Assembly (NCBI GenBank): GCA_001791305.1
Contig: MGEI01000005.1
Location: 340,208-404,207 of the forward strand
Reading direction: 5' to 3'
From: Candidatus Uhrbacteria bacterium RIFCSPLOWO2_01_FULL_47_17
Lineage (GTDB): Bacteria > Patescibacteriota > Patescibacteriia > UBA9934 > GWF2-40-263
Length of the DNA stretch: 64,000 nt
Part shown: positions 5,706 through 44,732 of the stretch, piece by piece
Layout of the letters: every line of letters starts with the position of its first letter
How positions within the stretch are numbered: the first letter of the stretch is position 1
The notes under the pieces: generated by a model
The model's database searches: none
What the model was told of the DNA's origin: nothing
What the model saw: the letters and a program-made list of their open reading frames with translations, nothing else
Made by a program: the position numbers and the translations under genes

Positions 5706-5820
5706 GTATCACCTCCATTGCAGATTTTCAGTTCATCAGTCTTTCTGATGCGCTGAAAAAAAGAGCCAAGAGAGCGAGTCTCTTGGCAGAATGTCCGAAT
5801 CGTTCGCTCGCAAGAGGCGA

Positions 5821-7047: not shown

Positions 7048-7238
7048 GTTGAGGAACTCCTGTACCTCGATGTGCTCGAGGTGTCTGTGTGTTGAAAGAT
7101 CACGGCCCGATCTTTGTAGGCTCCGTGTGTCGGCTTGTCCGACGCACGGATGGGAACAGTTCTTTCCCACGAATGTCGATTCAATCGGCACTCGTGTAAA
7201 AGGGTGATTGAGAATCAATCACCAGAGGGTTCAAAGAA

Positions 7239-8081: not shown

Positions 8082-8156
8082 GATGTCTTTCTCCGTGTCC
8101 CGGTTGTTGATTTGGGACATTCTGGGTTTGATCGCGTTTTTTAAGCCCGCAATCGT

Positions 8157-8972: not shown

Positions 8973-8982
8973 CCGAGCCCCC

Positions 8983-10527: not shown

Positions 10528-10636
10528 TACTGTTTCCTCCTTGTTGAAATAGGTCAGTTCGACTTTCGAACTTAGGTCACGTCCGACATTCGGATATGAA
10601 CTAAGAGAAAAGGTCGTTTTTTTTAAGGTGAAACGA

Positions 10637-11632: not shown

Positions 11633-11645
11633 GTGGCACCTCCTC

Positions 11646-13610: not shown

Positions 13611-13881
13611 CTTCCTTCTCCTTATCCTGCCGTTGAATAGGAAACGAATCGTGACAGGCCGACCCATTTTTGTCATTCGACAACTGACTCCGGAATTTTT
13701 CCGAAGTCAAGAACTTACCCGAAAATCCAAAAAATGTCAAGCGCTTTTTGCAGAATTCGCGTTGCGGCTTTGTCTAATCAAACTCGATGGGAAAATGGCT
13801 TTGTTTTGTGTTTGCTCTATGGAAATGTCAGAGAAAGCTGACAAAAAAACACCACGATATTTTGTCGTGGTGTTTTTAGGA

Positions 13882-15418: not shown

Positions 15419-15619
15419 GTCAACATCCTCTCACTTAGCCTCGCGCGAATGAGAGACCTGCTCTTTGAAACATTTTCGATCTGCCCGCAGCTGCTTCACA
15501 GCTGCGGGACTCGACTCTGAACATCACTTTGCGTCTCTCGCGAATGTGGTGGTCGGACTGAGTCTGGTTAGTGAGTTTTTTCAACAACATGATCGGCATG
15601 TCCGGTCGGAGGTTCTTTC

Positions 15620-16786
15620 ATGAAGTACAGCATCCTGTTCCTGGTGTCCTTGTTCCTTCTCGGTGCGTGCGGGACGTTCGAAGAATCGAATGCTCCGGCG
15701 CCTGCGACCGAAGAGGATTTGGAAATGGCCGAGTTTCTCGACTGCTCGGAAGTCGGTGACTGTGACGATTCGTTTCCGGACATCAACATCACGATCGAAC
15801 TCGATTGCGAGTCGGTCGATTCGAAGAAAAAAGGCGACATCTGCGTGTCGGTCTGCAACGAGTGCCAGAGCGGCTCCGACTGCATCGACACGGATGCCGA
15901 CTGGTATCCGGACACGTGCGTGACGCCCGTCGAAGCTCCGCCTGCGCGTGAACCGCCGCCGGTTTTGGTGGCTTGCGGTGGGACATTTTTTCCGCTCGGT
16001 GAACTGTGCAGTGGTGCATCCGGTGTGTGTCAGGAAAACGGCACACGCGAATGTTTCGAAGGCAAGCTCATCTGCTCGACGGATCCAAAGGGAAGCGCAT
16101 CGCTCGCGACCAATGAAGTCTGCGACGGTAAGGACAACGATTGCGACGGAGAGACGGATGAAGGTACGTCGCTCGTTTGGTACTTTCCGGACGTGGACGG
16201 TGATGGCTACGGCACAAGCGGCAATGCGCTTCTGAAGCCGGTCGAAGTCTGCACGAATGGATTGATTCCATCCGGCTACGTCTACAAAAGCGGTGACTGC
16301 GATGACAGCTACGATACAATCTACCCTGGCAAGAATTGTCCGTTTCCTGACAGTAACAGTGCATCCAAGTTGATCGTGATCCTCAAGTCATCGAAGAAGA
16401 CAAATATGGTTGGGTACGAAGATGACCCTACAACGTTCTACTTCAAGATTGCAAAGACTCTCGAGGAAGTCGCCGGCAAGTGGAGCAGTGATTATTTTCA
16501 GTTCGATACAGAAAGCGGATTCGCCGAGCTTGCTTTGAACGCGACGGATAAGTATGTCCGGTTCAACACGATCGACGCACCTGGGTGGTGGTCGACGTGC
16601 GGTGGGGCGTTCAACGCATTCAACGCAATTGATGGGGGATTCGCGCTCAATCCTAAGCTCAAGGTTTATCAGCTCAAGAACGGAGCATGGATCAACATGA
16701 CGAGCAAGGTGGAGATGTACGAGCAACCCAACGACGCAAGCAAGACCGACAGCGGTGACCTGTGCTCGGCTCTGCTCAAGCTTTAG
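15620..16786 (+). CDS. Cys-rich lipoprotein with MopE-like putative metal-binding repeats (DGxDNDCDGxxDE), paralogue 1
   Basis: Signal peptide plus lipobox LLGAC, repeated CDGKDNDCDGETDEG motifs, and a C-terminal domain homologous to that of the 16926 gene. Confidence 0.6.
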   Translation: MKYSILFLVSLFLLGACGTFEESNAPAPATEEDLEMAEFLDCSEVGDCDDSFPDINITIELDCESVDSKKKGDICVSVCNECQSGSDCIDTDADWYPDTCVTPVEAPPAREPPPVLVACGGTFFPLGELCSGASGVCQENGTRECFEGKLICSTDPKGSASLATNEVCDGKDNDCDGETDEGTSLVWYFPDVDGDGYGTSGNALLKPVEVCTNGLIPSGYVYKSGDCDDSYDTIYPGKNCPFPDSNSASKLIVILKSSKKTNMVGYEDDPTTFYFKIAKTLEEVAGKWSSDYFQFDTESGFAELALNATDKYVRFNTIDAPGWWSTCGGAFNAFNAIDGGFALNPKLKVYQLKNGAWINMTSKVEMYEQPNDASKTDSGDLCSALLKL

Positions 16787-16799
16787 TTCCTTTCAACTC

Positions 16800-16881
16800 G
16801 TTCGACCAACTTCGGAAATTCCGAAGCTGGTCGAACCTTTTTCAGAGACATCAATCAAAGTGATTGAGTGATCTGAGAAAG
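16800..16881 (+). repeat. Conserved intergenic leader unit, copy 1 (variant): palindrome, CTTTTTCAGAGA box, second hairpin
   Basis: gttcgaccaacttcggaaattccgaagctggtcgaac followed by ctttttcagaga, catcaatcaaagtgattgagtgatctgagaaag. Confidence 0.5.
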
Positions 16882-16894
16882 TTTCTGGGTTCCT

Positions 16895-16923
16895 GTTATA
16901 GGCGGGGTCCCTTGACCCCGCGG
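16895..16923. repeat. GC-rich hairpin element gttataggcggggtcccttgaccccgc (copy 1 of 3), in the 5'UTR of the lipoprotein gene
   Basis: Near-identical copies at 24106 (upstream of smc) and 22607 (inside smc). Confidence 0.5.
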
Positions 16924-16925
16924 AG

Positions 16926-18275
16926 GTGTTTTCCATGAAGTACGGAATTTCGTTTCTGGTGTCCTTGTTCCTGCTCGCGGCGTGCGAGACGACCAATGTG
17001 TACCCGACCGAGGTGGTCGAGGTACCGAAGGCGGAAACCGCGGTGAGTTGCAGTGCGGTCGATCCGACTCAGATCGAGATCAAACTCGACTGTGCGTCGG
17101 TCGGCGCGTTCCAGCACGGCGATTCTTGCATCAGCAACTGTACGCTCTGCAGCTCGCAAGAGATCTGCATCGATACGGACGGCGACAAGTGGAAGGACAC
17201 GTGCGTGCAAGGTGAGACGCCTCTTGAAACCCCGCCGGCTCACGAGCCGACGGCGACAACGGAAGCTCCGCCCGCTCGCGAACCGCCCGTCGAAGTTCAG
17301 TGCGGCGGTACGTTCGGCATGATCGGAACTCCGTGCAGTGGCGCGTTCGGCGCATGTGCGGAAAACGGCGTACTCGAGTGTGCTGACGGCGAATGGGAAT
17401 GTTCGACGGACGTGAAGGGAAGTGAATCTCTTGCGACTGTCGAACTGTGCGACGGCAAGGACAACGATTGCGACGGGGAGACGGATGAAGACTACACGTC
17501 TGACCTTGGCAAGCAGTGCTTCGGCCTGAATCAGTGCGGTCTTGGCCCGGGCGTCGTGGTTTGCAACAAGAAAGGAGAAATCGCGCAGTTGTCCTGCACG
17601 GTCGGAACCCCGTCGACGGCATATGCAACTCTGGATTCGCCGGAGCTCTGCGATGACATCGACAACAACTGCGACGGAAAGATCGACGAAGGCTGCGCGC
17701 TGAAAGTCGATCCATCCGAAGAAGACAATGACAAGGACAGTTACATGGCTCTGAATGACTGCGACGACAACGACGCGTTGATCCATCCCGGTCTCGACAA
17801 CTGCCCGACATTCCAAGGTCTGACCAAGGACAGTTACAAGCTGGTTCTGGTCTGGGGCGGAGCGGAAAACAGTCCGTACACCGCCAACGCGTATTTCAAG
17901 TTCGGAAAGAGTGCGGTCGAGTTGCAGTTCAGCTCGAAAGTGTTCTTCGACAACACGTGGGAAGTGAAAAGTTTCCCGCAATACAATTACACGGCGACGG
18001 ATCTGGAAAAGCAGTCGTCGCACGTCGCGTTCAACGTGTTCGGATATCCGGGTTACTGGTATCTGTGTTCGGGGAACGTCGTCGATACGATTTCATTCGC
18101 GCTCTCGAAGGAGCTTCCGAAGGTGTACCTCATCTCGGGCGGCGTCTGGAAGGAGGTGGGCAGCAAGCTTGAAGTGCTCGCAGCAAATGATCTCGAGGTC
18201 GTCAAAGGACCGATTTACGGCGGCGACTACAACAAGAGCAAGCCGGCCTACTGTGCAGCCATGCTGCAACTGTAA
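16926..18275 (+). CDS. Cys-rich lipoprotein with MopE-like metal-binding repeats, paralogue 2
   Basis: Signal peptide plus lipobox LLAAC, CDGKDNDCDGETDED and CDDIDNNCDGKIDEGC motifs, and a C-terminal domain paralogous to the 15620 gene. Confidence 0.6.
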   Translation: MFSMKYGISFLVSLFLLAACETTNVYPTEVVEVPKAETAVSCSAVDPTQIEIKLDCASVGAFQHGDSCISNCTLCSSQEICIDTDGDKWKDTCVQGETPLETPPAHEPTATTEAPPAREPPVEVQCGGTFGMIGTPCSGAFGACAENGVLECADGEWECSTDVKGSESLATVELCDGKDNDCDGETDEDYTSDLGKQCFGLNQCGLGPGVVVCNKKGEIAQLSCTVGTPSTAYATLDSPELCDDIDNNCDGKIDEGCALKVDPSEEDNDKDSYMALNDCDDNDALIHPGLDNCPTFQGLTKDSYKLVLVWGGAENSPYTANAYFKFGKSAVELQFSSKVFFDNTWEVKSFPQYNYTATDLEKQSSHVAFNVFGYPGYWYLCSGNVVDTISFALSKELPKVYLISGGVWKEVGSKLEVLAANDLEVVKGPIYGGDYNKSKPAYCAAMLQL

Positions 18276-18290
18276 GCTCCTTCATCAACT

Positions 18291-18377
18291 GTTCGACCCG
18301 CTTCCTGGAAGTTCCAGAAGTCGGTCGAACCTTTTCCAGAGATCCCGATCGAAGGTCGATCGAGGGATCTGAGAATG
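18291..18377 (+). repeat. Conserved intergenic leader unit, copy 2 (hairpin type A)
   Basis: Palindrome gttcgacccgcttcctggaagttccagaagtcggtcgaac, box cttttccagaga, hairpin tcccgatcgaaggtcgatcgaggga, then tctgagaatg. SD aaaggaggg follows. Confidence 0.6.
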
Positions 18378-18403
18378 TTTTGTTCAACAAAGGAGGGTGT
18401 CCC

Positions 18404-18850
18404 ATGGGTTCAACGGCAACGTCGGCGGTTGTGGTTCAACTGGAACATGAGATCGAGACCACAAAAGATCACCTTGACCAACTCAATGAGCGTTTGCGCG
18501 AGCAGACGACGGTCGGGTGGCTGGCGATCGTCAATTTCATGTTCGGCGGCAGGATTCAGTACGTCCGTATTTCGGATCGGGCCAACAATCCGTTCGATCA
18601 CTTCGACTCCTCGTCGAAACCTCACCGACAGCGCAGCTATGTGAAGGGCTGTTCCGACATTGATCAGGTGCGGGTGCTCTTTAGCGGTTGGAACGAACCT
18701 GAGTTTGAGATGAAGCTCGAAGACGGCCGCTCGCGGATTCCGGGATCGTTTGTTTTCCTAACCAACACGAACTTGGATGCGCTGACCCGGAAGGCTGAAG
18801 CTGTCCTTTCGAGTGAACGGCGCAACAAGAGTTCTGCGCTCGGTCAATAA
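18404..18850 (+). CDS. Small hypothetical protein (149 aa), cassette gene 1
   Basis: Start at M9 of the listed ORF, 6 nt after SD aaaggaggg. No recognisable motif. Confidence 0.45.
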   Translation: MGSTATSAVVVQLEHEIETTKDHLDQLNERLREQTTVGWLAIVNFMFGGRIQYVRISDRANNPFDHFDSSSKPHRQRSYVKGCSDIDQVRVLFSGWNEPEFEMKLEDGRSRIPGSFVFLTNTNLDALTRKAEAVLSSERRNKSSALGQ

Positions 18851-18853
18851 TCT

Positions 18854-18940
18854 GTTCGACCCGCTTCCTGGAAGTTTCAGAAGTTGGTCGAACCTTTTCC
18901 AGAGATCCCGATCGAAGGTCGATCGAGGGATCTGCGAAAG
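18854..18940 (+). repeat. Conserved intergenic leader unit, copy 3 (hairpin type A)
   Basis: Nearly identical to copy 2 (gttcgacccgcttcctggaagtttcagaagttggtcgaac, cttttccagaga, tcccgatcgaaggtcgatcgaggga, tctgcgaaag). Confidence 0.6.
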
Positions 18941-18982
18941 GTAATAGTGCCCGCGCAGGAATGCGTCGGCTTGGAGAGGAAG

Positions 18983-19339
18983 ATGATGACCATGCAAGAC
19001 AAAGCGGCGATGGCTGCGTTCGAGACGATTGTCGCGCGCGGGCTTGTGGGGCGTGAGGAACTGAAGCGGTGGATCGTCGATACGCACCTGGATTGGCGCA
19101 AGACTCACTTCAAGATCTTGTTTCGGAACGCCAACAACTCGCGGCGCATCGAGTGCGAAGTGCTCAACCGGCTCGAACCGCTTTCGGATGGTGGTGTGAA
19201 GATGTCGGTCGAGATCACGATGATCACGGCCGGCGCAAGCTCGCAGGTTCCGGAAAGTCCGTGGACCGATGTGCTCTTCGACGCGGACAGGCCGCGCACG
19301 GTTCGAATGAGCAGCATGCTTCGTAAGCGTGCGGCGTAA
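18983..19339 (+). CDS. Small hypothetical protein (about 118 aa), cassette gene 2
   Basis: Start at the MMTMQDK methionines, preceded by ggagaggaag. Weak similarity to cassette gene 1 (RNANN/DRANN region). Confidence 0.4.
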   Translation: MMTMQDKAAMAAFETIVARGLVGREELKRWIVDTHLDWRKTHFKILFRNANNSRRIECEVLNRLEPLSDGGVKMSVEITMITAGASSQVPESPWTDVLFDADRPRTVRMSSMLRKRAA

Positions 19340-19559
19340 AACAAGGAGTTCCGTGGAGACTGTCATCAAATGGTTTCCCGCTGCGTGTTTCTTCTTGCTT
19401 GTGCTCGTGATGCTCTTCATCACGGCGCATGTGGGAATGTGGATGTGGCCTGGCATGATCAAAACGTGGCATGGTGTCGCGTATGTGGTCACGCATCCGG
19501 CGGAAGTTGTGGTGGGCTTGCTCATCGCATTCTGTCTGCTCGCAAACGCACTCAAGTAG
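19329..19559 (+). CDS. Small membrane protein with two transmembrane helices (about 70 aa), cassette gene 3
   Basis: Two hydrophobic helices. A possible GTG start after aaggag sits at about 19353. Low confidence because an alternative overlapping frame exists (19370..19564). Confidence 0.3.
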   Translation: MRRKTRSSVETVIKWFPAACFFLLVLVMLFITAHVGMWMWPGMIKTWHGVAYVVTHPAEVVVGLLIAFCLLANALK

Positions 19560-19577
19560 TTTGAATACAGGAGGAAC

Positions 19578-19787
19578 ATGCAGATTCAGTTTCGACTGAT
19601 CAACGGACACATCGTTCGCGCGTCCTTCGAAAACAAACCTGAACTCGCCGGATTCGGCGATACGGAGGGGCAAGCGATTGCGGCACTTCTGAAAAAGGAA
19701 AAGGCTCGCAACCTTGAGCTCCAAGCGCTTTACTTCTTGTTACGCAGTTTGCTCGGTTCACATCAGGACGGGTTCCTGGTGAACTGA
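19578..19787 (+). CDS. Small hypothetical protein (69 aa), cassette gene 4
   Basis: Strong SD acaggagg 5 nt before the ATG. Confidence 0.45.
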   Translation: MQIQFRLINGHIVRASFENKPELAGFGDTEGQAIAALLKKEKARNLELQALYFLLRSLLGSHQDGFLVN

Positions 19788-31629: not shown

Positions 31630-32031
31630 TTAAATGGCGAATTTGAGGAATTTTTTGTCTGACGCGCGAATTCCTGCAATGATGTCGTGCTTCAGGTCTA
31701 AGAATTTGGCGTCCAGTCGATCTGTAAAATGTATAAACTGATCTTTGGTCGCCATTTCACAGCGAATGTCGTGGATGGTTTGATCAAATTCTGTTTTTGT
31801 AACCGCGGTTTCAACCATGAATTCAAATCGTTCTTGTATTTCACTGAATTGTTCATTTGTTTCTGATCGAAAATCATTGAATTCAGAACGAAAATCAGTC
31901 ATTTCTGATTTGATACCAGTGATCTCCGACTTCATTCCGGTCATTTCAGTTTTCATGGATTGCAAAACATCCAAAATTTGGACATTAGTTTGTTCGAGTC
32001 GATCAAGTTTTGTATTGAGGATGTTGTCCAT
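31630..32031 (-). CDS. Coiled-coil hypothetical protein (133 aa) with repeated MTGMKSEITGIKSEMTDFRSE heptad-like segments
   Basis: ORF with internal tandem sequence repeats. Confidence 0.45.
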   Translation of the reverse strand: MDNILNTKLDRLEQTNVQILDVLQSMKTEMTGMKSEITGIKSEMTDFRSEFNDFRSETNEQFSEIQERFEFMVETAVTKTEFDQTIHDIRCEMATKDQFIHFTDRLDAKFLDLKHDIIAGIRASDKKFLKFAI

Positions 32032-35045: not shown

Positions 35046-35153
35046 CTATTGACAAAATCACAAAAAGCCGATACGCTCGCGGAAGTTCTTTTTCGCGGGT
35101 GTTTTGTTTTCGATGGTCGAAAATGAATTACGCGCATTGTGTGTGAGGCGAAC

Positions 35154-36260
35154 ATGTCTTCTTCATATCCGAGACTCATGAGCGTTGATGGTCTGTCGAT
35201 TGGTGTCAATCTTCCGTACAGGCAGATGCATGGCGGACGGGGACTTGCCGCGTTTGCACCGCACATGGTTCACAACGTGGCAGACTTCAAGGAGTCGCCG
35301 CAAGGGTGGCCGCGCGCAGTCGGAGAAAAAGAAGCTTCGTACTTTACGGGCGTGATGGATGACCGCGAGATGTGGTTTGACTTCAAAGCCATGAATCAGC
35401 ATCCGCATTTCGTTGCGATCGCCGTGATTGTGCAGCGCGTGAATGCGGTGAGCGGTCGCAAGGCGGAGCATGTCTACCTTGAACAGTACAAGACCACGTG
35501 TCCGAATCACGACATCGCGTTTGAGTCGGAACGCTACTGCCCGGAATGCAAATTCAAGTGGCCGGCTCAGAACTACGTGACGAATGTGGTTGGAGGTGGT
35601 GAGTTCTGGCTCGACGGTTGGCGCAGCCAGGATGGCGAGATTCGTCAGTTCGTGTTTGCGGATGTCGAGGCTGGTCTCGGTGTCGCACAGCAACTGATCG
35701 GCGAGGAACGCACGGCAGACATTCGATTCGCAGTCTTCCTTTCGAAGAACCCGAAGCCGGTTTCGCCGCGTATGGATGTGTTGCGTCGAGGGATCGGGAG
35801 TCCGATCGTCACCGCACATCAGCAGCACTATGGCACTCTTGGCGGACACGATCTCGAATCGTTTGGTTCACAAACGAAGGGTGGTTTCGAAGTTCACACC
35901 ATGCTTTACAACAGTCCCGCTGTTGCCATGGGAACGCGTTCCATGGATCCCGCATCGGTGACCCTTGGTGGTGGTGAGGAGAGGGGGATCCCGTTTTGCG
36001 ACGATCTCGCAGAATCGGTCGGTACCATGCGTCGCATTGGCGCTCCGGTGAAGCAAGAGGTTTCGTTCGGTCGCGCGGTGGATCAGAAGATTCACGCGGA
36101 TCCGAACGACATCGACTTCTGGCAGTCGGAACCTGCCGCGGTCATCATGCTCACGCCCGCACCTGCGGATTGGGTGGCAACGGTCACGCGCAACGGCGCT
36201 ACCGTTGATCGCACGAAAGGCGGCATGGGTCCGCTTGCGGGAATCAAAGGCGTTGGCTAA
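35154..36260 (+). CDS. Hypothetical protein with a CxxH...CxxC motif (about 368 aa), island gene 1
   Basis: SD gagg before the MSSSYPRL start; TTCPNHD...YCPECKF. High GC. Confidence 0.5.
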   Translation: MSSSYPRLMSVDGLSIGVNLPYRQMHGGRGLAAFAPHMVHNVADFKESPQGWPRAVGEKEASYFTGVMDDREMWFDFKAMNQHPHFVAIAVIVQRVNAVSGRKAEHVYLEQYKTTCPNHDIAFESERYCPECKFKWPAQNYVTNVVGGGEFWLDGWRSQDGEIRQFVFADVEAGLGVAQQLIGEERTADIRFAVFLSKNPKPVSPRMDVLRRGIGSPIVTAHQQHYGTLGGHDLESFGSQTKGGFEVHTMLYNSPAVAMGTRSMDPASVTLGGGEERGIPFCDDLAESVGTMRRIGAPVKQEVSFGRAVDQKIHADPNDIDFWQSEPAAVIMLTPAPADWVATVTRNGATVDRTKGGMGPLAGIKGVG

Positions 36261-36302
36261 GACACGACTTCTTGAAAGCTGAAAGGCTTTCTTTTTTTGT
36301 TC

Positions 36303-36345
36303 TTGACAATTCTGTAGTATGTGTACATACTACACTATGTGACAG
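36303..36345 (+). promoter_or_regulatory. Strong sigma70-type promoter, copy A of a duplicated about 45-bp promoter module
   Basis: ttgacaattctgtagtatgtgtacatactacactatgtgacag, near-identical to 37825-37870. Confidence 0.45.
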
Positions 36346-36513
36346 GTGTTGCCTGGAAAATAGACAAGAAACCCTTGACGAATTCCAAATACGCGGCTAG
36401 TCTGCTGTATTGGTGAGCGGCTTTTAGGAGATTCACTCGAGTCTCTTGAAAGCCGTTCGTCAACAAACGCTGTGTTTGCCTCGTCGTTCGGTGTTTCAGC
36501 TAGGAGAAGTTCC

Positions 36514-37773
36514 ATGGCAAAGCCCAAGGCGCCCGTCGCCCCCGAAGTCGCTGTTTCCGGCGAAATCCCCGCTCCCGCAAGTGCGAAGTGGACCGACAAG
36601 GTCAAGGCGTTCGCCGAGACCTGCGAACTCGAAGCAGCGGATGTCGAAGCGAAGTTCGTCGGTCTCGTCGGAAAAGCGTCCGACAAGGCCGCGGATCGTC
36701 TCGGTAACGAGAAGTTGTCGCCCTACGAAGATCTGAGCGCGCTGTTCCCCGATGTCCCGAAGGCTGTGCTGCGTGAAGCAGTGAACGGTCTGCGTGACAT
36801 CCAGGTGACGGCGGCTCCGGTTGCAACCCATGAGGGTGCCAGTGATGGTGCGGAAGAAGCTCCGTTCGTTTCTCTGCTCCCCACGGTTCCTGACGATACC
36901 AATCTGCTCGCCTCCCTCGGAACGTTCCAGGGTGCGCAGATCGATCCGATCGACGTGATTGCGGCCATGCGCGTGAAGCTCATGCAGCAGTTGTCTCTTT
37001 CGGACATCGAGTCGCGTATCGCCGACGCCATCGAAGAGCGTGCGGTCAACGCGGGCGAACAGTGCCCGCCGATCTGGGATGAAATCGAGATGCAACGCAA
37101 GCGGTTTGCGCATGCGGAAGTCCTGAAGGCGCTCGGCAAGCCGGGCGATCTCATCTCGGCAGCTCGCAAGAAAGAATTGCTCGCTCGCGTGAGCGACATC
37201 TTCGAACGTGTGCATGACTACAAGCTCGTGCTCGACGCCTACCGTGAAGAGTACGATCGTCGTACCAACAATCCTGCGCACATGATGACAGCGATCACGC
37301 AAGCGCTCGGTCGTGCGAGCTCGGGTCGTGGTCGGCGTTTGAGCGAAGCTCCGAGCCCCAACAACGTGGTGGCGGCAACGGAAGCACTCATCCAGTCTTT
37401 CAACGCGATGTTTGCTGGTAATGGCCGCGCGGTTGCGCGTGGCATGGCTGCAGACGCGATCGCGACGAAGGCCATCCTCGATCGTACGGATTTGCCCGCC
37501 GCGCTCGGTGCGGCGAGTCGAGTTCAGATGATCAAGGATCTCAAGCTCGGTGTCGAATCGGATCTCATCAATGCCGAGAAGGACATCCAGCAGTTCATTT
37601 TGGGCGCGATGCAGCTCCTGCAGGTTCCGACGAACCAGTTGCCGGACTACATCGTTGACCTGAGCGAACTCGGCTGCGTCATCCCGTGGCCTCGCCTCGG
37701 TGTTCGCGGTACGGTTCCCGGCAACGGCGCCGCTCGTCCGCTTCCCGGCGCTGGCAATCGCTCTTTCGGCTAG
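36514..37773 (+). CDS. Hypothetical acidic Ala-rich protein (about 419 aa), island gene 2
   Basis: SD gctaggag before MAKPKAP. Confidence 0.5.
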   Translation: MAKPKAPVAPEVAVSGEIPAPASAKWTDKVKAFAETCELEAADVEAKFVGLVGKASDKAADRLGNEKLSPYEDLSALFPDVPKAVLREAVNGLRDIQVTAAPVATHEGASDGAEEAPFVSLLPTVPDDTNLLASLGTFQGAQIDPIDVIAAMRVKLMQQLSLSDIESRIADAIEERAVNAGEQCPPIWDEIEMQRKRFAHAEVLKALGKPGDLISAARKKELLARVSDIFERVHDYKLVLDAYREEYDRRTNNPAHMMTAITQALGRASSGRGRRLSEAPSPNNVVAATEALIQSFNAMFAGNGRAVARGMAADAIATKAILDRTDLPAALGAASRVQMIKDLKLGVESDLINAEKDIQQFILGAMQLLQVPTNQLPDYIVDLSELGCVIPWPRLGVRGTVPGNGAARPLPGAGNRSFG

Positions 37774-37824
37774 TCCGAACTTTCCGTCTCAGAACGTCCC
37801 AAAAAGACGTTCTTTTTTATTACT

Positions 37825-37870
37825 TGACAGTTTGTAAGTATGTGTATAATCTACACTATGTAAGACAGAT
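37825..37870 (+). promoter_or_regulatory. Strong sigma70-type promoter, copy B (TTGACA, 17 nt, TGTGTATAAT)
   Basis: ttgacagtttgtaagtatgtgtataatctacactatgtaagacag. Confidence 0.5.
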
Positions 37871-37951
37871 CGCTCAGGAATCATTGACTCCTGACGCATT
37901 TTGTCTTACTGTTCGCCCTCGTTCTTTCAAAACGAGAAGGAGATCCTGAAC

Positions 37952-39571
37952 ATGCAAACGTTGCCGGATATTCGTACGCTTCCACTTCCGTCCAAGTTCA
38001 CCACGGCGCTTCTCAAACTCGCGATTCGCACGCTTGAAATGGCCGAATCGAACGAGACGGGGAATCTCCTCGTCGCTGCTCGACTCTGCACTGCGACGGT
38101 TGGATCACGTACAACCTTTGGTCAGCTCTCGATTCCGTCCATCTCGGACTGGAACAATGCGATCATGATTGAAGGGATTGCGGCTCCTAGTGTTCGCATT
38201 CACGAACTTGTGGATCTTTTGAAGATGATCGATCCGACAACGCCTGTGTGCGATGCATGCGGCGAATTCGCGATCAATCAGATCGGCGGAAAGTTCATGT
38301 CGCTCGCACCGAGCGAAGTCTGTCCGTTCTGTCTCACGGGACATGTGCACATCGTGCCGATGATTCTGCGCACCGTGAACTGGGTAACCGGTGAACTGGT
38401 CGCGCCGAACATTGAGTACGATTCGCGCTCGCATGTCGGTGTCGGCATTCCACTGACCGACGAAGCGATCATGGATTGGGCGAAAGAGATTCATCCATCA
38501 CTCACGAAATCTCTTGAGAAGTACGGCGTGTCGATTCACGGATTTCTTGCATATGCTTTTTTGTATGCGCATGCATTTTCTTCGATCGAAGAAGCACCCG
38601 AGTTCCTCGCGCACGCGCCGTTTCATAGCACAGTGAATGCAACAGACCTTGCTGTAAAAGCAGCTTGGTTCATGGATGATCGCGAGATCACGAATCTTCC
38701 GCACAAGAAGTTTCTCTCCGACGGTCGTCGTCGCGATGAGTTTCAACCTGTCGTGATTGGCGGTCGATTGTATTTGATTGATCGACACATCGGCACGGGT
38801 GATAAGAGCGATGTGTTTCTTGCACGCACCGATGATGAAACGCCCGAGCGTCTCGTGCTCAAGCGTTTGCGTGAAACGGCCGACGGCGATTTGCACGATC
38901 ATGAAATTGACGTGCTGAATCGATTGGCGAAAAGTGTTGTGCGCGGTTCCGTGCACTTCAGTCAGTTCGTTCCGCAAATCGCGTTTTCGCAGAACAGCAA
39001 AACGGAAAAGCCGGTGATCGCCTTTCGTGAACGTGGAACATTCCATTTCACGGTTGCGGACGTTATGCGTGAATATCCAGAAGGAGCGGATTTCAAAACC
39101 GCGGTCTGGATTTGGAAGCGCATGCTCATGATTCTTGATTGGGTGCACGCGAACCGTTTGGTTCACGGCGCAATCCTTCCGGATCATATCTTGCTCGACG
39201 TGCCGAATCACAACGCACGACTCTTGGATTGGGGATACGCCGAATTGTTTGGTGGATCTCTTAAAGCCTTCAGTGAATCAAATCGTGCATTCTATCCCGC
39301 AGAAGTTTTGGGTGGTTCGCCACTTGATCCACGTCTGGACATTGCGATGATGACACGATGTGTCATCGCCCTTCTTGGCGGAGATCCCGTCCGGAAAATC
39401 CTTCCTTCTTCTGTGCCGGATGCGTTCCGTGTGTGGATGTTGGAAGAAGCAGGATACGACTCGTTGCGGACGGTCTGCGACAATGCGTATGCACTGCACG
39501 AGCGTGTGAGTGCGACGGCCAAACAAGTGTATGGTCCGCCGTCATTTCACGCGCTTTCCATGCCGCGCTAA
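37952..39571 (+). CDS. Protein-kinase-like fold protein with an N-terminal zinc ribbon (about 539 aa), atypical catalytic loop, island gene 3
   Basis: Zinc ribbon CDACGEF...CPFC. Kinase-like elements are LVLKRL (beta3 Lys), HEIDVLNRL (alphaC Glu), VHGAILPDHILLD in place of HRDLKPENILL, and LLDWGYAE in place of DFG. SD gaaggag. Confidence 0.55.
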   Translation: MQTLPDIRTLPLPSKFTTALLKLAIRTLEMAESNETGNLLVAARLCTATVGSRTTFGQLSIPSISDWNNAIMIEGIAAPSVRIHELVDLLKMIDPTTPVCDACGEFAINQIGGKFMSLAPSEVCPFCLTGHVHIVPMILRTVNWVTGELVAPNIEYDSRSHVGVGIPLTDEAIMDWAKEIHPSLTKSLEKYGVSIHGFLAYAFLYAHAFSSIEEAPEFLAHAPFHSTVNATDLAVKAAWFMDDREITNLPHKKFLSDGRRRDEFQPVVIGGRLYLIDRHIGTGDKSDVFLARTDDETPERLVLKRLRETADGDLHDHEIDVLNRLAKSVVRGSVHFSQFVPQIAFSQNSKTEKPVIAFRERGTFHFTVADVMREYPEGADFKTAVWIWKRMLMILDWVHANRLVHGAILPDHILLDVPNHNARLLDWGYAELFGGSLKAFSESNRAFYPAEVLGGSPLDPRLDIAMMTRCVIALLGGDPVRKILPSSVPDAFRVWMLEEAGYDSLRTVCDNAYALHERVSATAKQVYGPPSFHALSMPR

Positions 39572-39594
39572 CAGCGGCGATTCAGGAGTTCCCC

Positions 39595-40557
39595 ATGGGG
39601 TACGGTCGTAGTGATCACGACGCGCATGTGGCGCGTTCGGCAGTTCGGGCATCTCTTCCGCGTGAAGAGGTGTTCAAGCAACGTGTCCTCAATCCGGAAA
39701 TGGATCCGCGCGGACTCACGGTTCGCGAAAGTCGCGACAGTGCGGAACATCCGAACTCGCTCGGCGTCATGTTCTGGATCGATGAGACGGGTTCCATGTG
39801 CGAAATTCCGGAAAACCTCGCGAAGCACACACTCCCGCATTTCGTTGGCGACCTCATGAAGGTCGAGCCGGATGCGCAAGTGTTCTTCGGAGCGATCGGC
39901 GACGCAACGACGGGTGAAGCGTCTCCGCTTCAAGTGGGCCAGTTCGAAAGTTCGGACGAACTCATGGACAAGTGGCTGACCGCGGTTCACCTCGTCCGTG
40001 GCGGTGGTGGCAACGCGGGTGAGAGTTACGATCTCGCCATGTACGTCGCCGCGCGCCATACGGCCATGGACTGCTTCGAGAAGCGTGGTCGCAAGGGCTA
40101 CTTCTTCTTGTGCGGTGACGAACCGCATCTCGGCAGCGTGAAGAAGCGCGAGATCAAGCAGTTGATCGGCACGGACATCCCGAAGGATATCCCGATTGTG
40201 GAGATTGTTCGGGAACTGAAGCGCACGTTCCATCCGTTCTTCTTGATTCCGGATCCGGATCGGGCGCACCGTGTGGAGCGCATCTGGCGCGAGTTGTTTG
40301 GCGACAACGTCATCACGCTCGCGGTGCCGGAAGATACTGGTGTCGTCTCCGCGATTCTCATCGGTCTCACCGAAGGGCATCTTGCGGACATGCAGTCGGT
40401 GAAGGCCAAGCTTGAAAGCGACTTCGGCCGCAAAGGTCAGGAACGCGATCGCGTCTTGCGCGCAGTCGAAGCCTATGCGGTTTCGATCGGTCGTGCGGGA
40501 CAAGGCGAACGTCCGTCGAGCACAAACTCGCGTCCGTACGGCAACTCGCGTCCGTAA
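39595..40557 (+). CDS. Cytoplasmic vWA-domain protein (TerY-like), island gene 4
   Basis: MIDAS motif WIDETGSM, RGGGGNAGESYDLA and FLCGDEPH. SD aggag. Confidence 0.6.
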   Translation: MGYGRSDHDAHVARSAVRASLPREEVFKQRVLNPEMDPRGLTVRESRDSAEHPNSLGVMFWIDETGSMCEIPENLAKHTLPHFVGDLMKVEPDAQVFFGAIGDATTGEASPLQVGQFESSDELMDKWLTAVHLVRGGGGNAGESYDLAMYVAARHTAMDCFEKRGRKGYFFLCGDEPHLGSVKKREIKQLIGTDIPKDIPIVEIVRELKRTFHPFFLIPDPDRAHRVERIWRELFGDNVITLAVPEDTGVVSAILIGLTEGHLADMQSVKAKLESDFGRKGQERDRVLRAVEAYAVSIGRAGQGERPSSTNSRPYGNSRP

Positions 40558-40649
40558 GTTCTTTCCATCTTGAGGTTCAACGCGAACCTCTTTTTTTACA
40601 AGCAATGATCAACAGGATGATTGCTGGTAGAAAAACAAACGGAGGTTTC

Positions 40650-42035
40650 ATGAATCAACATGCTCACATTGTCATCGACCTTGGATTCGGTGATTGTGGA
40701 AAAGGCACGATCGTTGATGCACTCGTGCGTAAACACAAAGCCCATTCCGTGTTTCGTTTCAATGGTGGTGCGCAAGCCGCACACAATGTTGTGACGTCGG
40801 ACGGAAGGCATCACACATTTCAACAGTTTGGTTCTGGAACATTTGTTCCGGGCGTACGAACGATTCTTTCTGAATTCATGCTCGTACAGCCATGGATCTT
40901 GTCTTCAGAAGAAGCACTGCTTCAGCAAGTTGGTGTGACTGATGCGTTTGATCGACTGTTCATTCATGAGCGCGCACTCATTACGACTCCTTTTCATCGT
41001 GCGGCAAACCAAATGCGCGAACGCGCTCGAGGGGACGGTCGCCACGGGAGTTGTGGAATAGGCGTTGGTGAAACAGCGAAGGATGCGACGGAGTGCGGAG
41101 AAGAGTTGATTCTTCGTATGGGCGACCTTTGCGATCGCGAAACGTTTGTGACGAAAATGCATCGTGTACGCAAGTACAAGCATAATCAAATGCGTTTGTT
41201 CATTGCGGCGCAACGTCGTGATCCAGATGCGGAAGCAAATATTCTTGCATTCGAGGATCCGGATGAAGTGATGTACTGGGTTGATCAACTCTACACATCG
41301 ATCGAACGATTTCATATTGTTGACGACGCGTTTGTTGCATCGATCTTGGAAGAAGATGGTCACGTTGTTTTCGAAGGCGCACAAGGCGTGCTCATCGACG
41401 AATGGCGCGGATTCCATCCGTACACCACATGGTCCACATGCACATTCAAAAACGCGCTCGAACTGCTCGAGCGCGCAAATTATGCAGGTGAAGTTCATCG
41501 GATCGGGGTTGTACGTGCGTACGCAACGCGGCATGGCGCGGGACCGTTTCCAACGGAAGATGCAGGACTCACGGAACGCATTCCAGACACGCACAACCAA
41601 ATGGAAACATGGCAACGCGAATTTCGCGTTGGCCACTTCGATTGTGTCTCCACGCGTTACGCGATCAATGCCTGTGGCGGCATCGACTCGCTTGCGATCA
41701 CGTGTCTCGATCGCTTGCGCGATGAACATGTATGGAATGTCTGCACGCATTACGAGCTCGCGGCGGAAGATCAAGATTCCGCGTTGTTCGACCAAGACGA
41801 TGTTTCGGAACATCTCGTGACGGACATAAGACTCGGAACCTTTCAAGATCTCGCACATCAAGAGCGACTCACGAACGCACTTCTTCGCGCAAAGCCTGTG
41901 TTGCGCATTACGGCATCATCCGGCACGTTCAGCGAAAGTGTCGAAGATCACGTCCATCGAATCTCGCGCGAACTCGACGTTCCGGTCTCGATCCTCTCAT
42001 TTGGTCCCACGGCCGAAGACAAGAAATTTCTCTGA
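40650..42035 (+). CDS. Adenylosuccinate synthetase family paralogue (PurA/PurZ-like) with substituted catalytic motifs, island gene 5
   Basis: Shows collinear similarity to PurA (VIDLGFGDCGKGTIVD, FEGAQGVLIDEWRGFHPYTTWS, VRAYATRHGAGPFPTE, LAITCLDRL). GDEGKGK becomes GDCGKGT, GGHNAGHT becomes GGAQAAHN, GTTGRGIGP becomes GSCGIGVGE, and TTGRRRR becomes TWQREFR. Confidence 0.65.
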   Translation: MNQHAHIVIDLGFGDCGKGTIVDALVRKHKAHSVFRFNGGAQAAHNVVTSDGRHHTFQQFGSGTFVPGVRTILSEFMLVQPWILSSEEALLQQVGVTDAFDRLFIHERALITTPFHRAANQMRERARGDGRHGSCGIGVGETAKDATECGEELILRMGDLCDRETFVTKMHRVRKYKHNQMRLFIAAQRRDPDAEANILAFEDPDEVMYWVDQLYTSIERFHIVDDAFVASILEEDGHVVFEGAQGVLIDEWRGFHPYTTWSTCTFKNALELLERANYAGEVHRIGVVRAYATRHGAGPFPTEDAGLTERIPDTHNQMETWQREFRVGHFDCVSTRYAINACGGIDSLAITCLDRLRDEHVWNVCTHYELAAEDQDSALFDQDDVSEHLVTDIRLGTFQDLAHQERLTNALLRAKPVLRITASSGTFSESVEDHVHRISRELDVPVSILSFGPTAEDKKFL

Positions 42036-42159
42036 TGCGATTCACTTCGCATCTTTTTTGTTTCCTAACCTTGACATAAGCGAGTTCATTTGATAGGCTT
42101 TCGCTCGTTGTGTACAGATGGTCTGCACGCAATTTGTTCCTCAAACACAAAGGAAAGCC

Positions 42160-43080
42160 ATGTCGAAGAAGATCGGTGCAGAACTCGCGGCGGCCATTTT
42201 GGCCATGTTCAAGGATCCCTCCAAGCTCGCGGTTGAGCTCAAGGTTCACATCTTTCCGTGTCCGCACGGCGATGAAAAATCCCATTCGCATTTCAAGGTG
42301 ACGTCCCCGTTCGTTGGGGAAAACGCGCCCAGTCCGAAGCTCGAAAGTGATCTGATGATCCAAGCGTCCATGCAGCCTTTCACGCCCGTCAACGGCAATT
42401 ACATCTTCCGTCAGAGTCTGCTCGAGGGCACCAAGTGCACGAATGCGGAAGGGGCGGATGAGGCAACGGTCGAGTTCTTGCTCCAAAACGGCGTGACCAA
42501 GGCCCTGTTCGATCTGAGTTGTTTCCTGAACGAAGCGCTCGCCGAGTGGCCGACCGAAGTTGTGACTGAGCACGCGCTCGCACGTGCGTATTCGGAAAAC
42601 CTGCGCCGCAAGGTCTGGCATGGCAGTGATACGAATCCGATCGATGTCGAGGTGATCGGTGCGGTGGAAGATGCCCATCAGGCAACTCTCATCAAGCTCA
42701 ACTCCGTACTCTCCGGCCTGTTCGGTCGCCCTCCGCGGCCGCCACAGAATGACAAGATCGTTCTCGTTGCGTTCAGTGACAACAATCCGTGTGCACCCGT
42801 GGTCCGCAAGGTCTATGCTGCGTACGCAACCGAGATCCTGAACACGAAGATCGAACCCGAGATCGCTCCCAAGATCGTGGAGCGCGTGCAGCTCGCTCTC
42901 GACACGCTCGCAACGCGCCTCGCAAAGCAGCAGGCTCCGAAGACGGAAGCAATCACCAACGCTCCGACAGCAACGTCCGGCGCGGTCGAGGGTGACTCGA
43001 CCAAGAACAACAGTTCGTCGATCGGCGAAACCTCGGAAGACACCGAAGGCCACAGTTCCTCGATCGGCGCCACGGCGTAG
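42160..43080 (+). CDS. Hypothetical protein with a low-complexity Ser-rich C-terminus (about 306 aa), island gene 6
   Basis: SD aaaggaaag before the MSKKIGAE start. An upstream TTGACA...TAGGCT promoter-like site lies at about 42061-42095. Confidence 0.5.
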   Translation: MSKKIGAELAAAILAMFKDPSKLAVELKVHIFPCPHGDEKSHSHFKVTSPFVGENAPSPKLESDLMIQASMQPFTPVNGNYIFRQSLLEGTKCTNAEGADEATVEFLLQNGVTKALFDLSCFLNEALAEWPTEVVTEHALARAYSENLRRKVWHGSDTNPIDVEVIGAVEDAHQATLIKLNSVLSGLFGRPPRPPQNDKIVLVAFSDNNPCAPVVRKVYAAYATEILNTKIEPEIAPKIVERVQLALDTLATRLAKQQAPKTEAITNAPTATSGAVEGDSTKNNSSSIGETSEDTEGHSSSIGATA

Positions 43081-43254
43081 GTCGATCCAGTCTCACACTC
43101 TCCCTCGCGAGAGTGTTTTTTTATTTTGTTCGACAAAATAATCCCTCGAAGCCTTCTGCTTACTGGAGGATATTATCGAAGATGACGGCGAAGTGGGATG
43201 TGTTATGTAAAGATTTCGTCGTATACAAAATAAAAAGAGGATCAAGATTGATCC

Positions 43255-43809
43255 TCAAGCCGCGATCGCTTCCGGAATGAGACCGATCGCCATGCGTCCG
43301 GCCTGATGTTGCGCGAGTGTGTCCTGCATAGCCTTCTCTCCGGCCATGATGGAAAACGCGTGTTCGTGGAATTCCTCTTGGGGAAGAATGCGGCCGAAGA
43401 CGGCGCGCACGTCTGCGGGGGCGGACGTGTCTGCGACGATCGCGCGAATGCGCTCGAGGCGCATGTGCTCCGCGTGCGCCGCAACCGCCGCGCCCGTCTC
43501 GAACGACTCGATGCCACCGAGCGTCTTGTCCCAGTAGCGTTCTTCTTTGGCGAGAACTTCCGGCGTGATGCCTCGCGCGGTCAGCAGTTCGCCAACCCAC
43601 GCAGCGTGCGTGCGCTCTTGGTCTGCAATCGTGAGCAGTACGCGCTCTGCACGGCTGTCTTGCTGCACATACCGTTTTGCGAATGCTTCGATCCGCTCAG
43701 CTGCGGTGACTTCGCCATGATACTGCTTCATGAGCCAGTCCGTGAACCGCGCCTCGTCGATCTTGATTGCGTTCCACCACGCACTCGAACTTCGTTCAAG
43801 GTTACGCAT
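43255..43809 (-). CDS. Ferritin-like diiron-carboxylate protein (about 184 aa)
   Basis: Start MRNLERS after AAGGAG. Repeated ExxH motifs (QERTHAAW, AHAEHMRLE, EEFHEHAF). Confidence 0.5.
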   Translation of the reverse strand: MRNLERSSSAWWNAIKIDEARFTDWLMKQYHGEVTAAERIEAFAKRYVQQDSRAERVLLTIADQERTHAAWVGELLTARGITPEVLAKEERYWDKTLGGIESFETGAAVAAHAEHMRLERIRAIVADTSAPADVRAVFGRILPQEEFHEHAFSIMAGEKAMQDTLAQHQAGRMAIGLIPEAIAA

Positions 43810-43964: not shown

Positions 43965-44732
43965 ATGAAAAATCCCGAATCATTTTTGCAAAGTCTCGGA
44001 CTCACCCAGACAGAATCCACGGTGTATCTCGCAGGACTTTCACACAACGGAACAAACGCGCAGGCGCTCGCAAAACAAACGGGCATCAAACGCCCGACCG
44101 TTTATTATGCGCTTGAGACGCTTATGCAAAAAGGATTGGTAACAAAAAAGGGCGTGGGGAATCGCCGTGTGTATTCCATGACGTCGCCCGAGAATCTGAA
44201 GACATTTGTGGATGCGCAGATTTCGGAAATGCAAACCAAAAAACAATCCCTCGACGGATTTGTCGAAACACTTTTGAAACAACAGGGTGTGGTCACGCCA
44301 ACATCGAGTGTCTCGCACTATGAGGGGATCGAAGGCGTGAAGCTTGTTGTCGAAGAAGCGCTGTACTGCAAGTCGCGTCACTGGGATATTCTCGCACCAA
44401 AGAAAAATTTCTTTTCCGAGTTTGATGCCGAATACGCAAAGTACTACCTCGATGCACGCAAGCGTCGACGTATCACATCACGTTCGCTTTGGGAGAAAGT
44501 AGGAGGGAAGTCGTCTGTGTCTCGTGAAGTGATCGCCGAGCGCCAGCCAAGATACTTGCCAGAGGTGATGTCTGGTCGATTTCAGTCTGTGATGATTCTG
44601 TTTGACGATAGGGTTCTGTTTATCTCGTCGTACAAGTCATTGTCCGCGATTCTCATCCAGTCCGACGAAATGCATCAGTTTCTCCTCGCGATGTTCGATG
44701 GTTTGTGGGCGGGGGCGGAGAAGATTGGATAA
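43965..44732 (+). CDS. TrmB-family transcriptional regulator
   Basis: wHTH TVYLAGLSHNGTNAQALAKQTGIKRPTVYYALETLMQKGLV; paralogous to the 28626 gene. Confidence 0.55.
   Translation: MKNPESFLQSLGLTQTESTVYLAGLSHNGTNAQALAKQTGIKRPTVYYALETLMQKGLVTKKGVGNRRVYSMTSPENLKTFVDAQISEMQTKKQSLDGFVETLLKQQGVVTPTSSVSHYEGIEGVKLVVEEALYCKSRHWDILAPKKNFFSEFDAEYAKYYLDARKRRRITSRSLWEKVGGKSSVSREVIAERQPRYLPEVMSGRFQSVMILFDDRVLFISSYKSLSAILIQSDEMHQFLLAMFDGLWAGAEKIG

Follow-up and report, generated by a model that had tools for sequence, protein, structure and literature searches.

A kinase-like, vWA and PurA-like gene trio in an Uhrbacteria genome and its counterparts in bacteria and phages, with a predicted role in purine nucleotide transformation

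The stretch of DNA analyzed here, hereafter the window, comprises 64,000 nt of the genome of Candidatus Uhrbacteria bacterium RIFCSPLOWO2_01_FULL_47_17 (contig MGEI01000005.1, positions 340,208 to 404,207), a member of the Candidate Phyla Radiation (CPR). It encompasses a block of six genes, denoted g1 to g6, three of which form a conserved trio that is the main subject of this work: g3, encoding a kinase-fold protein; g4, encoding a protein with a predicted von Willebrand factor A (vWA) fold; and g5, encoding a relative of the adenylosuccinate synthetase PurA. An initial annotation, made from the sequence alone, had described six same-strand genes preceded by Shine-Dalgarno sequences, and gene calls on identical public contigs bear this out. 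We chose the start of each gene from its Shine-Dalgarno-like sequence, located 5–10 nt 5' of the start, and the chosen starts agree with these independent calls. The exact g5 protein is encoded by 23 public contigs, including those of Candidatus Uhrbacteria metagenome-assembled genomes from Rifle groundwater (GCA_001790985, GCA_001791565), and the exact g3 protein by a contig of 568,899 bp. The six genes are:

g1: 35154-36260, forward strand, 368 amino acids (aa), Cys/His-motif protein
g2: 36514-37773, forward strand, 419 aa, acidic Ala-rich protein
g3: 37952-39571, forward strand, 539 aa, zinc ribbon and kinase-fold protein
g4: 39595-40557, forward strand, 320 aa, predicted vWA-fold protein
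g5: 40650-42035, forward strand, 461 aa, PurA-like protein
g6: 42160-43080, forward strand, 306 aa, protein with a Ser/Thr-rich C-terminal tail

Hairpins followed by T-runs, resembling intrinsic terminators, were found at these positions:

36274-36291, forward strand, after g1
37791-37813, forward strand, after g2
40572-40590, forward strand, after g4
42034-42053, forward strand, after g5
43095-43116, forward strand, after g6

The ribH gene, upstream of the block, likewise ends in a hairpin and T-run terminator. These positions divide the block into the transcription units g1, g2, g3-g4, g5 and g6; because the g4 start lies only 24 nt past the g3 stop codon, g3 and g4 constitute one operon.

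The trio in bacteria and phages and its three proteins

Homologues of the g4 vWA protein are widespread in bacteria, with 4741 found at ~50% identity in Myxococcota, Binatia, Eisenbacteria, Patescibacteria and others, and relatives encoded in at least 583 species genomes when one genome per species was scanned. We sampled 78 of these loci, from Myxococcota, Planctomycetota, Burkholderiales, Chloroflexia, Verrucomicrobiota, Acidobacteriota, Patescibacteria and other groups, and clustered the encoded proteins all against all. Three conserved families emerged, namely, vWA (78 loci), PurA-like (75) and kinase-like (66), and no fourth conserved neighbor family was detected in these 78 loci; several loci lacking one member end at contig ends. 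The gene order is constant, kinase-like, vWA, PurA-like, on one strand. Candidate natural fusions within the trio were discarded, the long open reading frames (ORFs) in high-GC loci being out-of-frame stop-free stretches. About 12 loci (L011 of Pyxidicoccus parkwayensis, L023-L027, L059 and ~10 others) contain the vWA gene in two paralogous copies, arranged as kinase-vWA-PurA-vWA or kinase-vWA-vWA-PurA, with the M-G N-terminus described below kept in both copies.

The same genes are present in phages. In INPHARED, the vWA gene occurs in 219 records (201 Mycobacterium, 10 Rhizobium and 6 Vibrio phages, and 2 others) and the kinase-like gene in 203 mycobacteriophage records; the mycobacteriophage carriers, ~200 isolates, belong to cluster C. 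In Bixzunavirus QBert, the genes are adjacent, with genes 253, 254 and 255 annotated as 'kinase', 'hypothetical' and '2-aminooxy adenylosuccinate synthetase', respectively; a J-domain in the QBert kinase-like protein, suspected from an 'HPD' tripeptide, was unsupported by Pfam. In Vibrio phage phiKT1024 and Rhizobium phage RHph_Y65, the vWA-PurA-like pair lies amid genes of nucleotide and NAD metabolism. Just 5' of the vWA gene, the Vibrio and Rhizobium phages also encode a Met-/Gly-rich protein with M runs (MNMNMNMGAMGNKMM...; L018 5217-5930; L019 4777-5568), for which no homologue was found in the bacterial loci. In IMG/VR, 262 contigs encode a vWA relative, and among the best 80 of these 262 loci (GC 26–68%, contigs up to 421 kb), the PurA-like gene adjoins the vWA gene in 76, and the kinase-like gene is present as well in 46. 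The vWA proteins share a median identity of 53% among bacteria and 44% among viruses, compared with 38% across the two groups, and the nearest neighbors of a vWA protein are almost always from the same group. Bacterial and viral sequences form two separate clades, and the copies in cells thus do not stem from recent prophage insertion.

Hundreds of genomes carry the kinase-like, vWA and PurA-like genes side by side, so these genes are functionally linked. The initial annotation had suggested a six-gene system; this stands in part, as the trio is linked across these genomes, but g1 and g6 are lineage-specific additions. The conserved unit consists of three genes, or of four when g2 is counted.

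The annotation of g5 as an adenylosuccinate synthetase homologue was confirmed by a 240-bit match to Pfam Adenylsucc_synt (PF00709), although g5 falls below the cut-offs of both NCBIfam purA equivalogs (NF002223, 190.7 vs 402; TIGR00184, 173.1 vs 395.6) and that of the PurZ model NF038379 (51 vs 300). The protein contains the P-loop GFGDCGKG (nt 40683-40706) and is matched by the PHROG family phrog_1211 at 2e-80. Active sites were compared by aligning the PurA-like clade to E. coli PurA, and residues were counted, in E. coli numbering, over 65 sequences from bacteria and 76 from viruses. The clade shows next to no variation at Asp13, Lys16, His41, Gln224, Thr239 and Asp333, the last of which specifies guanine, and each of Asp13, Lys16, His41, Gln224 and Asp333 is kept in at least 63 of the 65 bacterial and at least 74 of the 76 viral sequences. 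The site for the 5'-phosphate of inosine monophosphate (IMP) is altered: Asn38 is replaced by Gln (with one exception), Thr129 by Cys or Val, and Arg143 by a variable residue. Val273 is replaced by His throughout, and the aspartate loop T300-T-G-R-R-R-R by [WFY]-Q-G-x-F-R. The clade has invariant residues of its own, Gln38, His273, [WFY]300, Gln301 and Phe305, and aromatic residues, W240, F305 and [WFY]300, occur in its amine pocket. Given that the replaced positions are themselves invariant in bacteria and phages, they indicate a conserved but different substrate pair rather than loss of function. By these profile scores and residues, g5 belongs to a vWA-linked clade of its own within the adenylosuccinate synthetase superfamily, one that is not PurZ and appears not to be PurA.

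The g3 protein consists of an N-terminal helical region, a zinc ribbon and a protein-kinase fold (residues ~262-539). The zinc ribbon, CxxC...CxxC at residues 100-127 (nt 38249-38332), is nearly invariant in the family, and the catalytic loop reads HGAILPDH (residues 405-412, nt 39164-39187). Both features had been pointed out in the initial annotation, and Pfam, Protein Data Bank (PDB) and structure-model comparisons agree with it: g3 scores 32 bits against Pfam Pkinase (cut-off 31.7), its best PDB sequence matches are CK2, and its AlphaFold2 (AF2) model, at a mean predicted local distance difference test score (pLDDT) of 77, matches CK1, Aurora and CK2 in Foldseek, with a template modeling score of up to 0.73 on the target. 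The fold search was dominated by the kinase domain and was uninformative on the N-terminal region. Across 63 g3 relatives, the catalytic-loop consensus is vHGAvxPxH, from which the HRD Asp and the catalytic Asn are gone; the DFG Asp, kept in g3 itself (LDWG), is absent from most of the 63. The beta3 Lys and alphaC Glu are conserved in the family, and its fold is bilobal and kinase-like. By the usual criteria, the g3 family thus looks like a predicted pseudokinase. Among module loci, only the C-terminal kinase domain of g3 is universal, and most bacteria encode a short kinase-like form of ~340 aa made of the zinc ribbon and the kinase fold.

The AF2 model of g4, built from a 24-sequence alignment, reached a pLDDT of 88.5 and a predicted template modeling score of 0.88; its best PDB matches in Foldseek are integrin beta I-like domains (E ~4e-7, probability 1.0). 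No match of g4 to the Pfam vWA models PF00092, PF13519 and PF10138 was obtained at E<=0.1, and it is the modeled fold that identifies g4 as a predicted cytoplasmic vWA-fold protein. A vWA protein with an intact metal-ion-dependent adhesion site (MIDAS) had been proposed for this gene, in keeping with the fold and with the motif D63-E-T-G-S67 (nt 39781-39795), where the metal site is predicted; across the vWA family, D63, G66 and S67 of this motif are invariant and position 65 is Thr or Ser. The homologues also share an N-terminus, M-G-[YG]-[GS]-x-[YW]-S, found in 175 of 178 bacterial and viral sequences by a search that is biased toward finding it, since a start codon with Gly next to it counted when it lay up to 6 residues before or after the position expected. 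The motif holds even in phage vWA proteins only 32–38% identical to g4, and the positional consensus appears striking despite this search bias. In g4, the feature is located as follows:

39595-39606, forward strand, N-terminal M-G-Y-G of g4, a family-conserved motif

This invariant Gly/aromatic peptide is a probable docking or modification site.

Accessory genes, predicted operator and history of the Uhrbacteria block

Searches of g1, g2 and g6 against Pfam, NCBIfam, PADLOC, PHROGs and PDB sequences returned nothing informative. The Cys/His motif noted earlier in g1 turned out to be family-invariant: the N-terminal domain of ~200 aa contains C116-P-x-H119...C129-x-x-C132 together with WLDG[FW]R..DGxxRQ, and is followed by a low-complexity linker and a conserved C-terminal domain of ~70 aa. 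The g1 family comprises 432 cluster representatives at E<=1e-3. In several relatives, one or two N-terminal vWA domains are fused to the g1-type domain, which provides Rosetta-stone evidence that this domain works with vWA proteins. Among module loci, g1 is confined to the Uhrbacteria-type genomes L059, L216 and L217. Genes of the g1 type are also found, away from the trio, in 35 huge-phage contigs of IMG/VR (L181-L215, up to 548 kb). There, the g1-like gene (~6000-7100) is always preceded on the same strand by a gene (~4950-5930) for an uncharacterized ~310-aa protein, and the two constitute a conserved gene pair separate from the trio. This partner is not a vWA protein (probability 0.2% in hhalign against the vWA family), and its N-terminal 70 aa weakly resemble the g2 N-terminus (probability 67%).

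The acidic, Ala-rich character ascribed to g2 holds (15.5% Ala, pI 5.2). Its homologues adjoin a long kinase-like gene in L013, L015, L059, L100, L178, L179, L216, L217 and L218, and g2 was found solely beside such long-form kinase genes, being an accessory partner of the long-kinase subtype. For g6, the description as Ser-rich applies to the Ser/Thr-rich C-terminal tail but not to the whole protein, with 7.8% Ser overall. Homologues of g6 are confined to L059, L216 and L217, always 3' of the PurA-like gene, and are absent from L218, which also lacks g1; the identity pattern of g6 across the CPR loci tracks that of g1. Thus, g1 and g6 are lineage-specific accessory genes that occur together.

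In two loci, the CPR genome L217 and the 124-kb IMG/VR contig L100, genes for a divergent vWA-like protein and for a kinase that looks active are inserted between g2 and the pseudokinase gene; L100 may belong to a CPR phage, or it may be a CPR fragment that was misclassified. The arrangement is as follows:

extended module, L100 315-10310 and L217 5327-14175: g2-like, vWA-like, active-looking kinase, pseudokinase, vWA, PurA-like

The inserted vWA-like protein begins with M-(G)-S-G-N-S-[YF] and contains the motif DNSGS. In L100, a gene for a calcineurin-like phosphoesterase follows the extended module. In a further locus, L180 (4719-7783; European Nucleotide Archive contig ERZ27253378), a second set of genes lies directly after the trio of long kinase, vWA and PurA-like genes and encodes a fusion of a DnaJ domain to a protein kinase (Pkinase 119 bits, apparently active), followed by proteins of 326 and 330 aa. 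The DnaJ-kinase fusion is genuine and is a separate kinase from the kinase-like protein of the trio. Further along this contig is an NAD salvage/ADP-ribose cluster (NrtR-type Nudix, isochorismatase, ADP-ribosylglycohydrolase, NAPRTase).

The Uhrbacteria block contains a 59-nt element in two copies, 5' of g2 and of g3, that are 78% identical:

36282-36340, forward strand, copy 1: terminator tail, TTGACA at 36303, inverted repeat TGTGTA-N5-TACAC at 36320-36335
37803-37861, forward strand, copy 2: 5' of the g3-g4 operon, inverted repeat at 37841-37856

In copy 1, the inverted repeat overlaps the -10 region. These are the only two TGTGTA-N5-TACAC sites within the 64 kb, and the repeat is kept 5' of the g2 and g3 homologues in a second Uhrbacteria genome, L059. 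Because this conservation persists although the g2 and g3 proteins of L059 are only 28% and 48% identical to those of the window, it is good evidence for an operator, by which g2 and g3-g4 are predicted to be co-regulated. The repeated strong promoters reported in the initial annotation thus survive in the form of this element but not as a general enrichment, since a generic sigma-70 scan found promoter-like sites no more common than in shuffled sequence (3 vs 3.2). A TrmB-family regulator gene (43965-44732), directly 3' of the block and 90% identical in L059, encodes a candidate binder of the inverted repeat.

The block directly follows ribE-ribH in five CPR genomes (the window, L216, L217, L059 and L218), with g3 identity of 36–100%. 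Identities to the window, in percent, are:

L216: RibH 92, g1 50, g2 69, g3 72, g4 79, g5 73, g6 42
L217: RibH 95, g1 63, g2 49, g3 51, g4 44, g5 59, g6 55
L059: RibH 90, g1 61, g2 28, g3 48, g4 49, g5 65, g6 57
L218: RibH 78, g1 absent, g2 32, g3 36, g4 41, g5 48, g6 absent

The initial annotation had suggested horizontal acquisition, but this shared position makes the block an old resident of its locus and refutes a recently acquired island. A prophage origin of the Uhrbacteria copy was likewise rejected, given the flanking ribE/ribH, rubrerythrin, trmB, gpsA and tsaD/E genes and the distinct bacterial and viral vWA clades. Block proteins are 28–79% identical, against 90–95% for the flanking RibH, and the divergence is mosaic, with g1 and g6 varying together and g2-g5 varying together as a second unit. 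Although syntenic among CPR relatives, the block behaves unlike ordinary core metabolism, diverging far faster than its flanks and as a mosaic. For CPR biology, the module marks a fast-evolving mosaic locus amid housekeeping genes.

Possible functions of the trio and comparison with known systems

The linkage and synteny of the genes, the residues and folds of their proteins and the conservation of the operator are shown above; from them we infer the chemistry, interactions and regulatory and biological roles of the module as follows. With a probability of roughly 45%, the trio would be a purine-nucleotide-transforming module in which a PurA-family ligase provides the output and the pseudokinase and vWA protein regulate, scaffold or target it. 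The PurA-like enzyme would still use GTP to activate the carbonyl of a 6-oxopurine, which an amine then displaces, whereas the acceptor-phosphate and aspartate pockets would have been rebuilt. Its product would most likely be an N6-substituted adenine-type nucleotide rather than adenylosuccinate, or else its substrate would be a purine other than IMP. The pseudokinase and the MIDAS vWA protein are most likely a regulatory or scaffolding pair that controls or targets this enzyme, and in Uhrbacteria the module would be extended by the co-regulated g2, plus g1 and g6.

Several points weigh against this interpretation. The residue argument depends on the alignment to E. coli PurA, and the register of the loop at positions 298-306 differs by one residue between HMMER and MAFFT; under either register, Thr301, Arg303 and Arg305 are unconserved in the clade. 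The invariant His residues and the beta3 Lys mean that g3 could be an unconventional enzyme and not a scaffold. A conflict system would likewise account for the variability of the genomic context, the patchy distribution among taxa and the rapid evolution as a mosaic, and g5 may have an ordinary salvage role in Uhrbacteria.

A conflict function would take the form of anti-phage defense or abortive infection by the bacterial trio, with the pseudokinase-vWA pair as the sensor and the PurA-like protein as an effector that depletes GTP or IMP or makes a toxic or signaling purine nucleotide; the phage copies would then be decoys, counter-defenses or tools of inter-phage competition. The trio occurs in variable genomic contexts without conserved neighbors and is patchily distributed over many phyla at ~50% identity, the CPR block diverges 2–5x faster than its flanks and as a mosaic, some loci lie near PIN, NADase or AbiGi-like genes or near NAD-salvage genes, and the extended variants with an active kinase and a second vWA-like protein recall the kinase-vWA triads of conflict systems. 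We nevertheless consider defense rather unlikely. The vWA and PurA-like proteins have no match in PADLOC and the kinase matches are generic; a recognizable toxic effector (nuclease, NADase, pore or protease) is absent; the separate, internally conserved bacterial and viral clades look more like shared physiology than an arms race; and the Uhrbacteria block resides in a housekeeping neighborhood. Moreover, the same cassette is standard in many large, strictly lytic phages, which weakens the defense reading and makes purine-nucleotide transformation during infection or stress likelier than classical abortive infection.

The possibility that g5 is simply the organism's own salvage adenylosuccinate synthetase, with unrelated neighbors and no system at all, seems very improbable to us. 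Its strong Adenylsucc_synt match, its conserved catalytic residues, and its own Shine-Dalgarno sequence and terminator, along with the terminator that separates it from g4, agree with such a role, and nucleotide metabolism in CPR genomes is often reduced and divergent. However, g5 scores under half of the purA equivalog cut-offs. The clade shares with canonical PurA (EC 6.3.4.4) the fold and Asp13, Lys16, His41, Gln224, Thr239 and Asp333, but it has other residues in place of every IMP 5'-phosphate ligand (Asn38, Thr129 and Arg143) and every aspartate ligand (Thr301, Arg303 and Arg305). Furthermore, the PurA-like gene is found beside the vWA gene in ~150 independent bacterial and viral loci, including those of large-genome Myxococcota, which have a canonical purA. 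Protein modification is a long shot: the PurA-like enzyme would use, in place of aspartate, the alpha-amine of the vWA N-terminal Gly exposed after Met removal, or another protein amine, attaching a purine nucleotide to the protein, with the kinase-fold protein as an adaptor. It is suggestive that a free N-terminal Gly would occur beside an enzyme of a family whose usual reaction joins an amine to a purine, and the invariant Gly2, the persistence of the motif in 175 of 178 vWA homologues down to 32% identity, the loss of the dicarboxylate-binding Arg and Thr, the aromatic [WFY]300, W240 and F305 in the amine pocket, and the tight gene coupling are all consistent with it. The chain is conjectural throughout, though, the motif search favored a start codon with Gly, and the conservation of the N-terminus would be explained just as well by a docking peptide, by a pseudosubstrate of the kinase fold or by a stability signal.

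A further reading, which we deem distinctly unlikely as it stands, is that the vWA-linked PurA-like enzymes form a third functional branch of the superfamily, joining a 6-oxopurine nucleotide to a non-aspartate amine under the control of a pseudokinase-vWA switch. If so, an amine supplied by the vWA N-terminal Gly would amount to a new nucleotide-protein modification, and a small amine to a new N6-substituted adenine nucleotide serving as a signal or as a building block of DNA or RNA in jumbo phages and bacteria.

The closest precedent for a remodeled PurA is found in PurZ and PurZ0, phage PurA paralogues that make N6-succino-2-amino-2'-deoxyadenylate for Z-genomes. Like them, the g5 clade comprises phage-borne, divergent members of the superfamily with an altered substrate specificity, which for g5 is a prediction. 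However, all phage PurZ members have Ser in place of Asp13 (PMC12884076), whereas the PurA-like clade keeps Asp13 in 141 of 141 sequences; PurZ is partnered with DatZ, MazZ, DpoZ or DutZ rather than with a vWA protein and a pseudokinase; and the vWA-linked clade, unlike PurZ, is common in bacterial chromosomes. A 2026 survey listed 481 viral PurA homologues, of which 151 fell in the PurZ group and the rest were unassigned (PMC12884076), and the module probably accounts for many of these non-PurZ homologues. The one other divergent branch of PurA is PurZ, through which a new pathway to a DNA base came to light. That an active site of the family should be rebuilt a second time, in company with a pseudokinase and a MIDAS protein, suggests more new purine chemistry, or regulation, where phage and host meet.

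The pairing of a kinase with a vWA protein had been likened, in the initial annotation, to the TerY-P triad, which, as reportedly described by Anantharaman, Iyer and Aravind in 2012, combines a TerY vWA protein, a Ser/Thr kinase and a PP2C phosphatase in Ter-associated stress or conflict loci. There is some likeness: the module places the gene of a predicted cytoplasmic MIDAS vWA protein beside that of a zinc-ribbon kinase-fold protein, and the extended variants L100 and L217 add an active kinase, in L100 together with a metallophosphatase. The resemblance does not hold further. As already remarked in the annotation, PP2C is absent, with no Pfam match among the six proteins and no fourth family in the 78 bacterial loci; the kinase-like protein of the module lacks the HRD Asp and catalytic Asn and mostly the DFG Asp; g4 matches no TerY, TerF or Pfam VWA model, though its modeled fold is vWA; and the invariable third partner, the PurA-like enzyme, has no place in the triad. 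PrkA-YeaH-YcgB/SpoVR and MoxR-vWA pairs join a vWA protein to an NTPase or to a protein resembling a kinase. The trio is similar in that a nucleotide-binding protein and a predicted cytoplasmic MIDAS vWA protein are encoded in one operon but differs in that the six block proteins match none of the AAA+, DUF444 and SpoVR Pfam models.

The claim that the block fits no described family is upheld. In PADLOC-DB v2, g1, g2, g4, g5 and g6 have no match, and g3 gives only weak, generic kinase-domain matches (MkoA, PD-T4-6, PglW, mad6); none of the searches returned a TerY-type vWA, PP2C, PurZ or purA equivalog. Full-text literature searches combining adenylosuccinate or PurA with vWA, kinase, phage, TerY or MoxR, which covered journals other than subscription ones, yielded no description of the module, and a comparative jumbo-phage review makes no mention of PurA, purine or this module. 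We rate the module as a putative new kind of system built from known folds and recognized here from gene neighborhood alone. It is carried by >580 bacterial species genomes, >260 IMG/VR contigs and ~200 cultured mycobacteriophages, and is both unnamed and unstudied in the searchable literature. As cluster C mycobacteriophages and Myxococcus are genetically tractable, the proposed function is directly testable.

Base composition and other genes of the window

The initial annotation had called the block a high-GC island. The block is indeed more GC-rich (0.551) than the window as a whole (0.499) and than its immediate flanks (0.42–0.49), but it is not exceptional, as the window segments at 5.8–13.7 kb and 15.6–19.6 kb match or exceed it (GC 0.54–0.64; GC at third codon positions, GC3, 0.60–0.82). 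GC3 of the block genes ranges from 0.49 to 0.72, compared with 0.52 ± 0.10 elsewhere in the window, and 31 of the 52 other ORFs of the window reach the lowest value of the block. The GC excess is therefore real but modest, and alone it is no proof of horizontal transfer. The heterogeneity of GC in this genome thus tracks lineage-specific, probably surface-related genes in general.

The two GC-rich segments (5800-13700 and 15600-19600) encode large proteins with matches only to OmpA domains or MopE-type metal-binding motifs, or with no Pfam match. Between the block and the TrmB gene is a rubrerythrin-like gene (43255-43809) that is as GC-rich as the block (GC 0.59). On the reverse strand, an ORF of 133 aa (31630-32031) without a Pfam match encodes short internal peptide repeats (…TGMKSEITGIKSEMTDFRSEFNDFRSE…) and is kept on the identical contigs.

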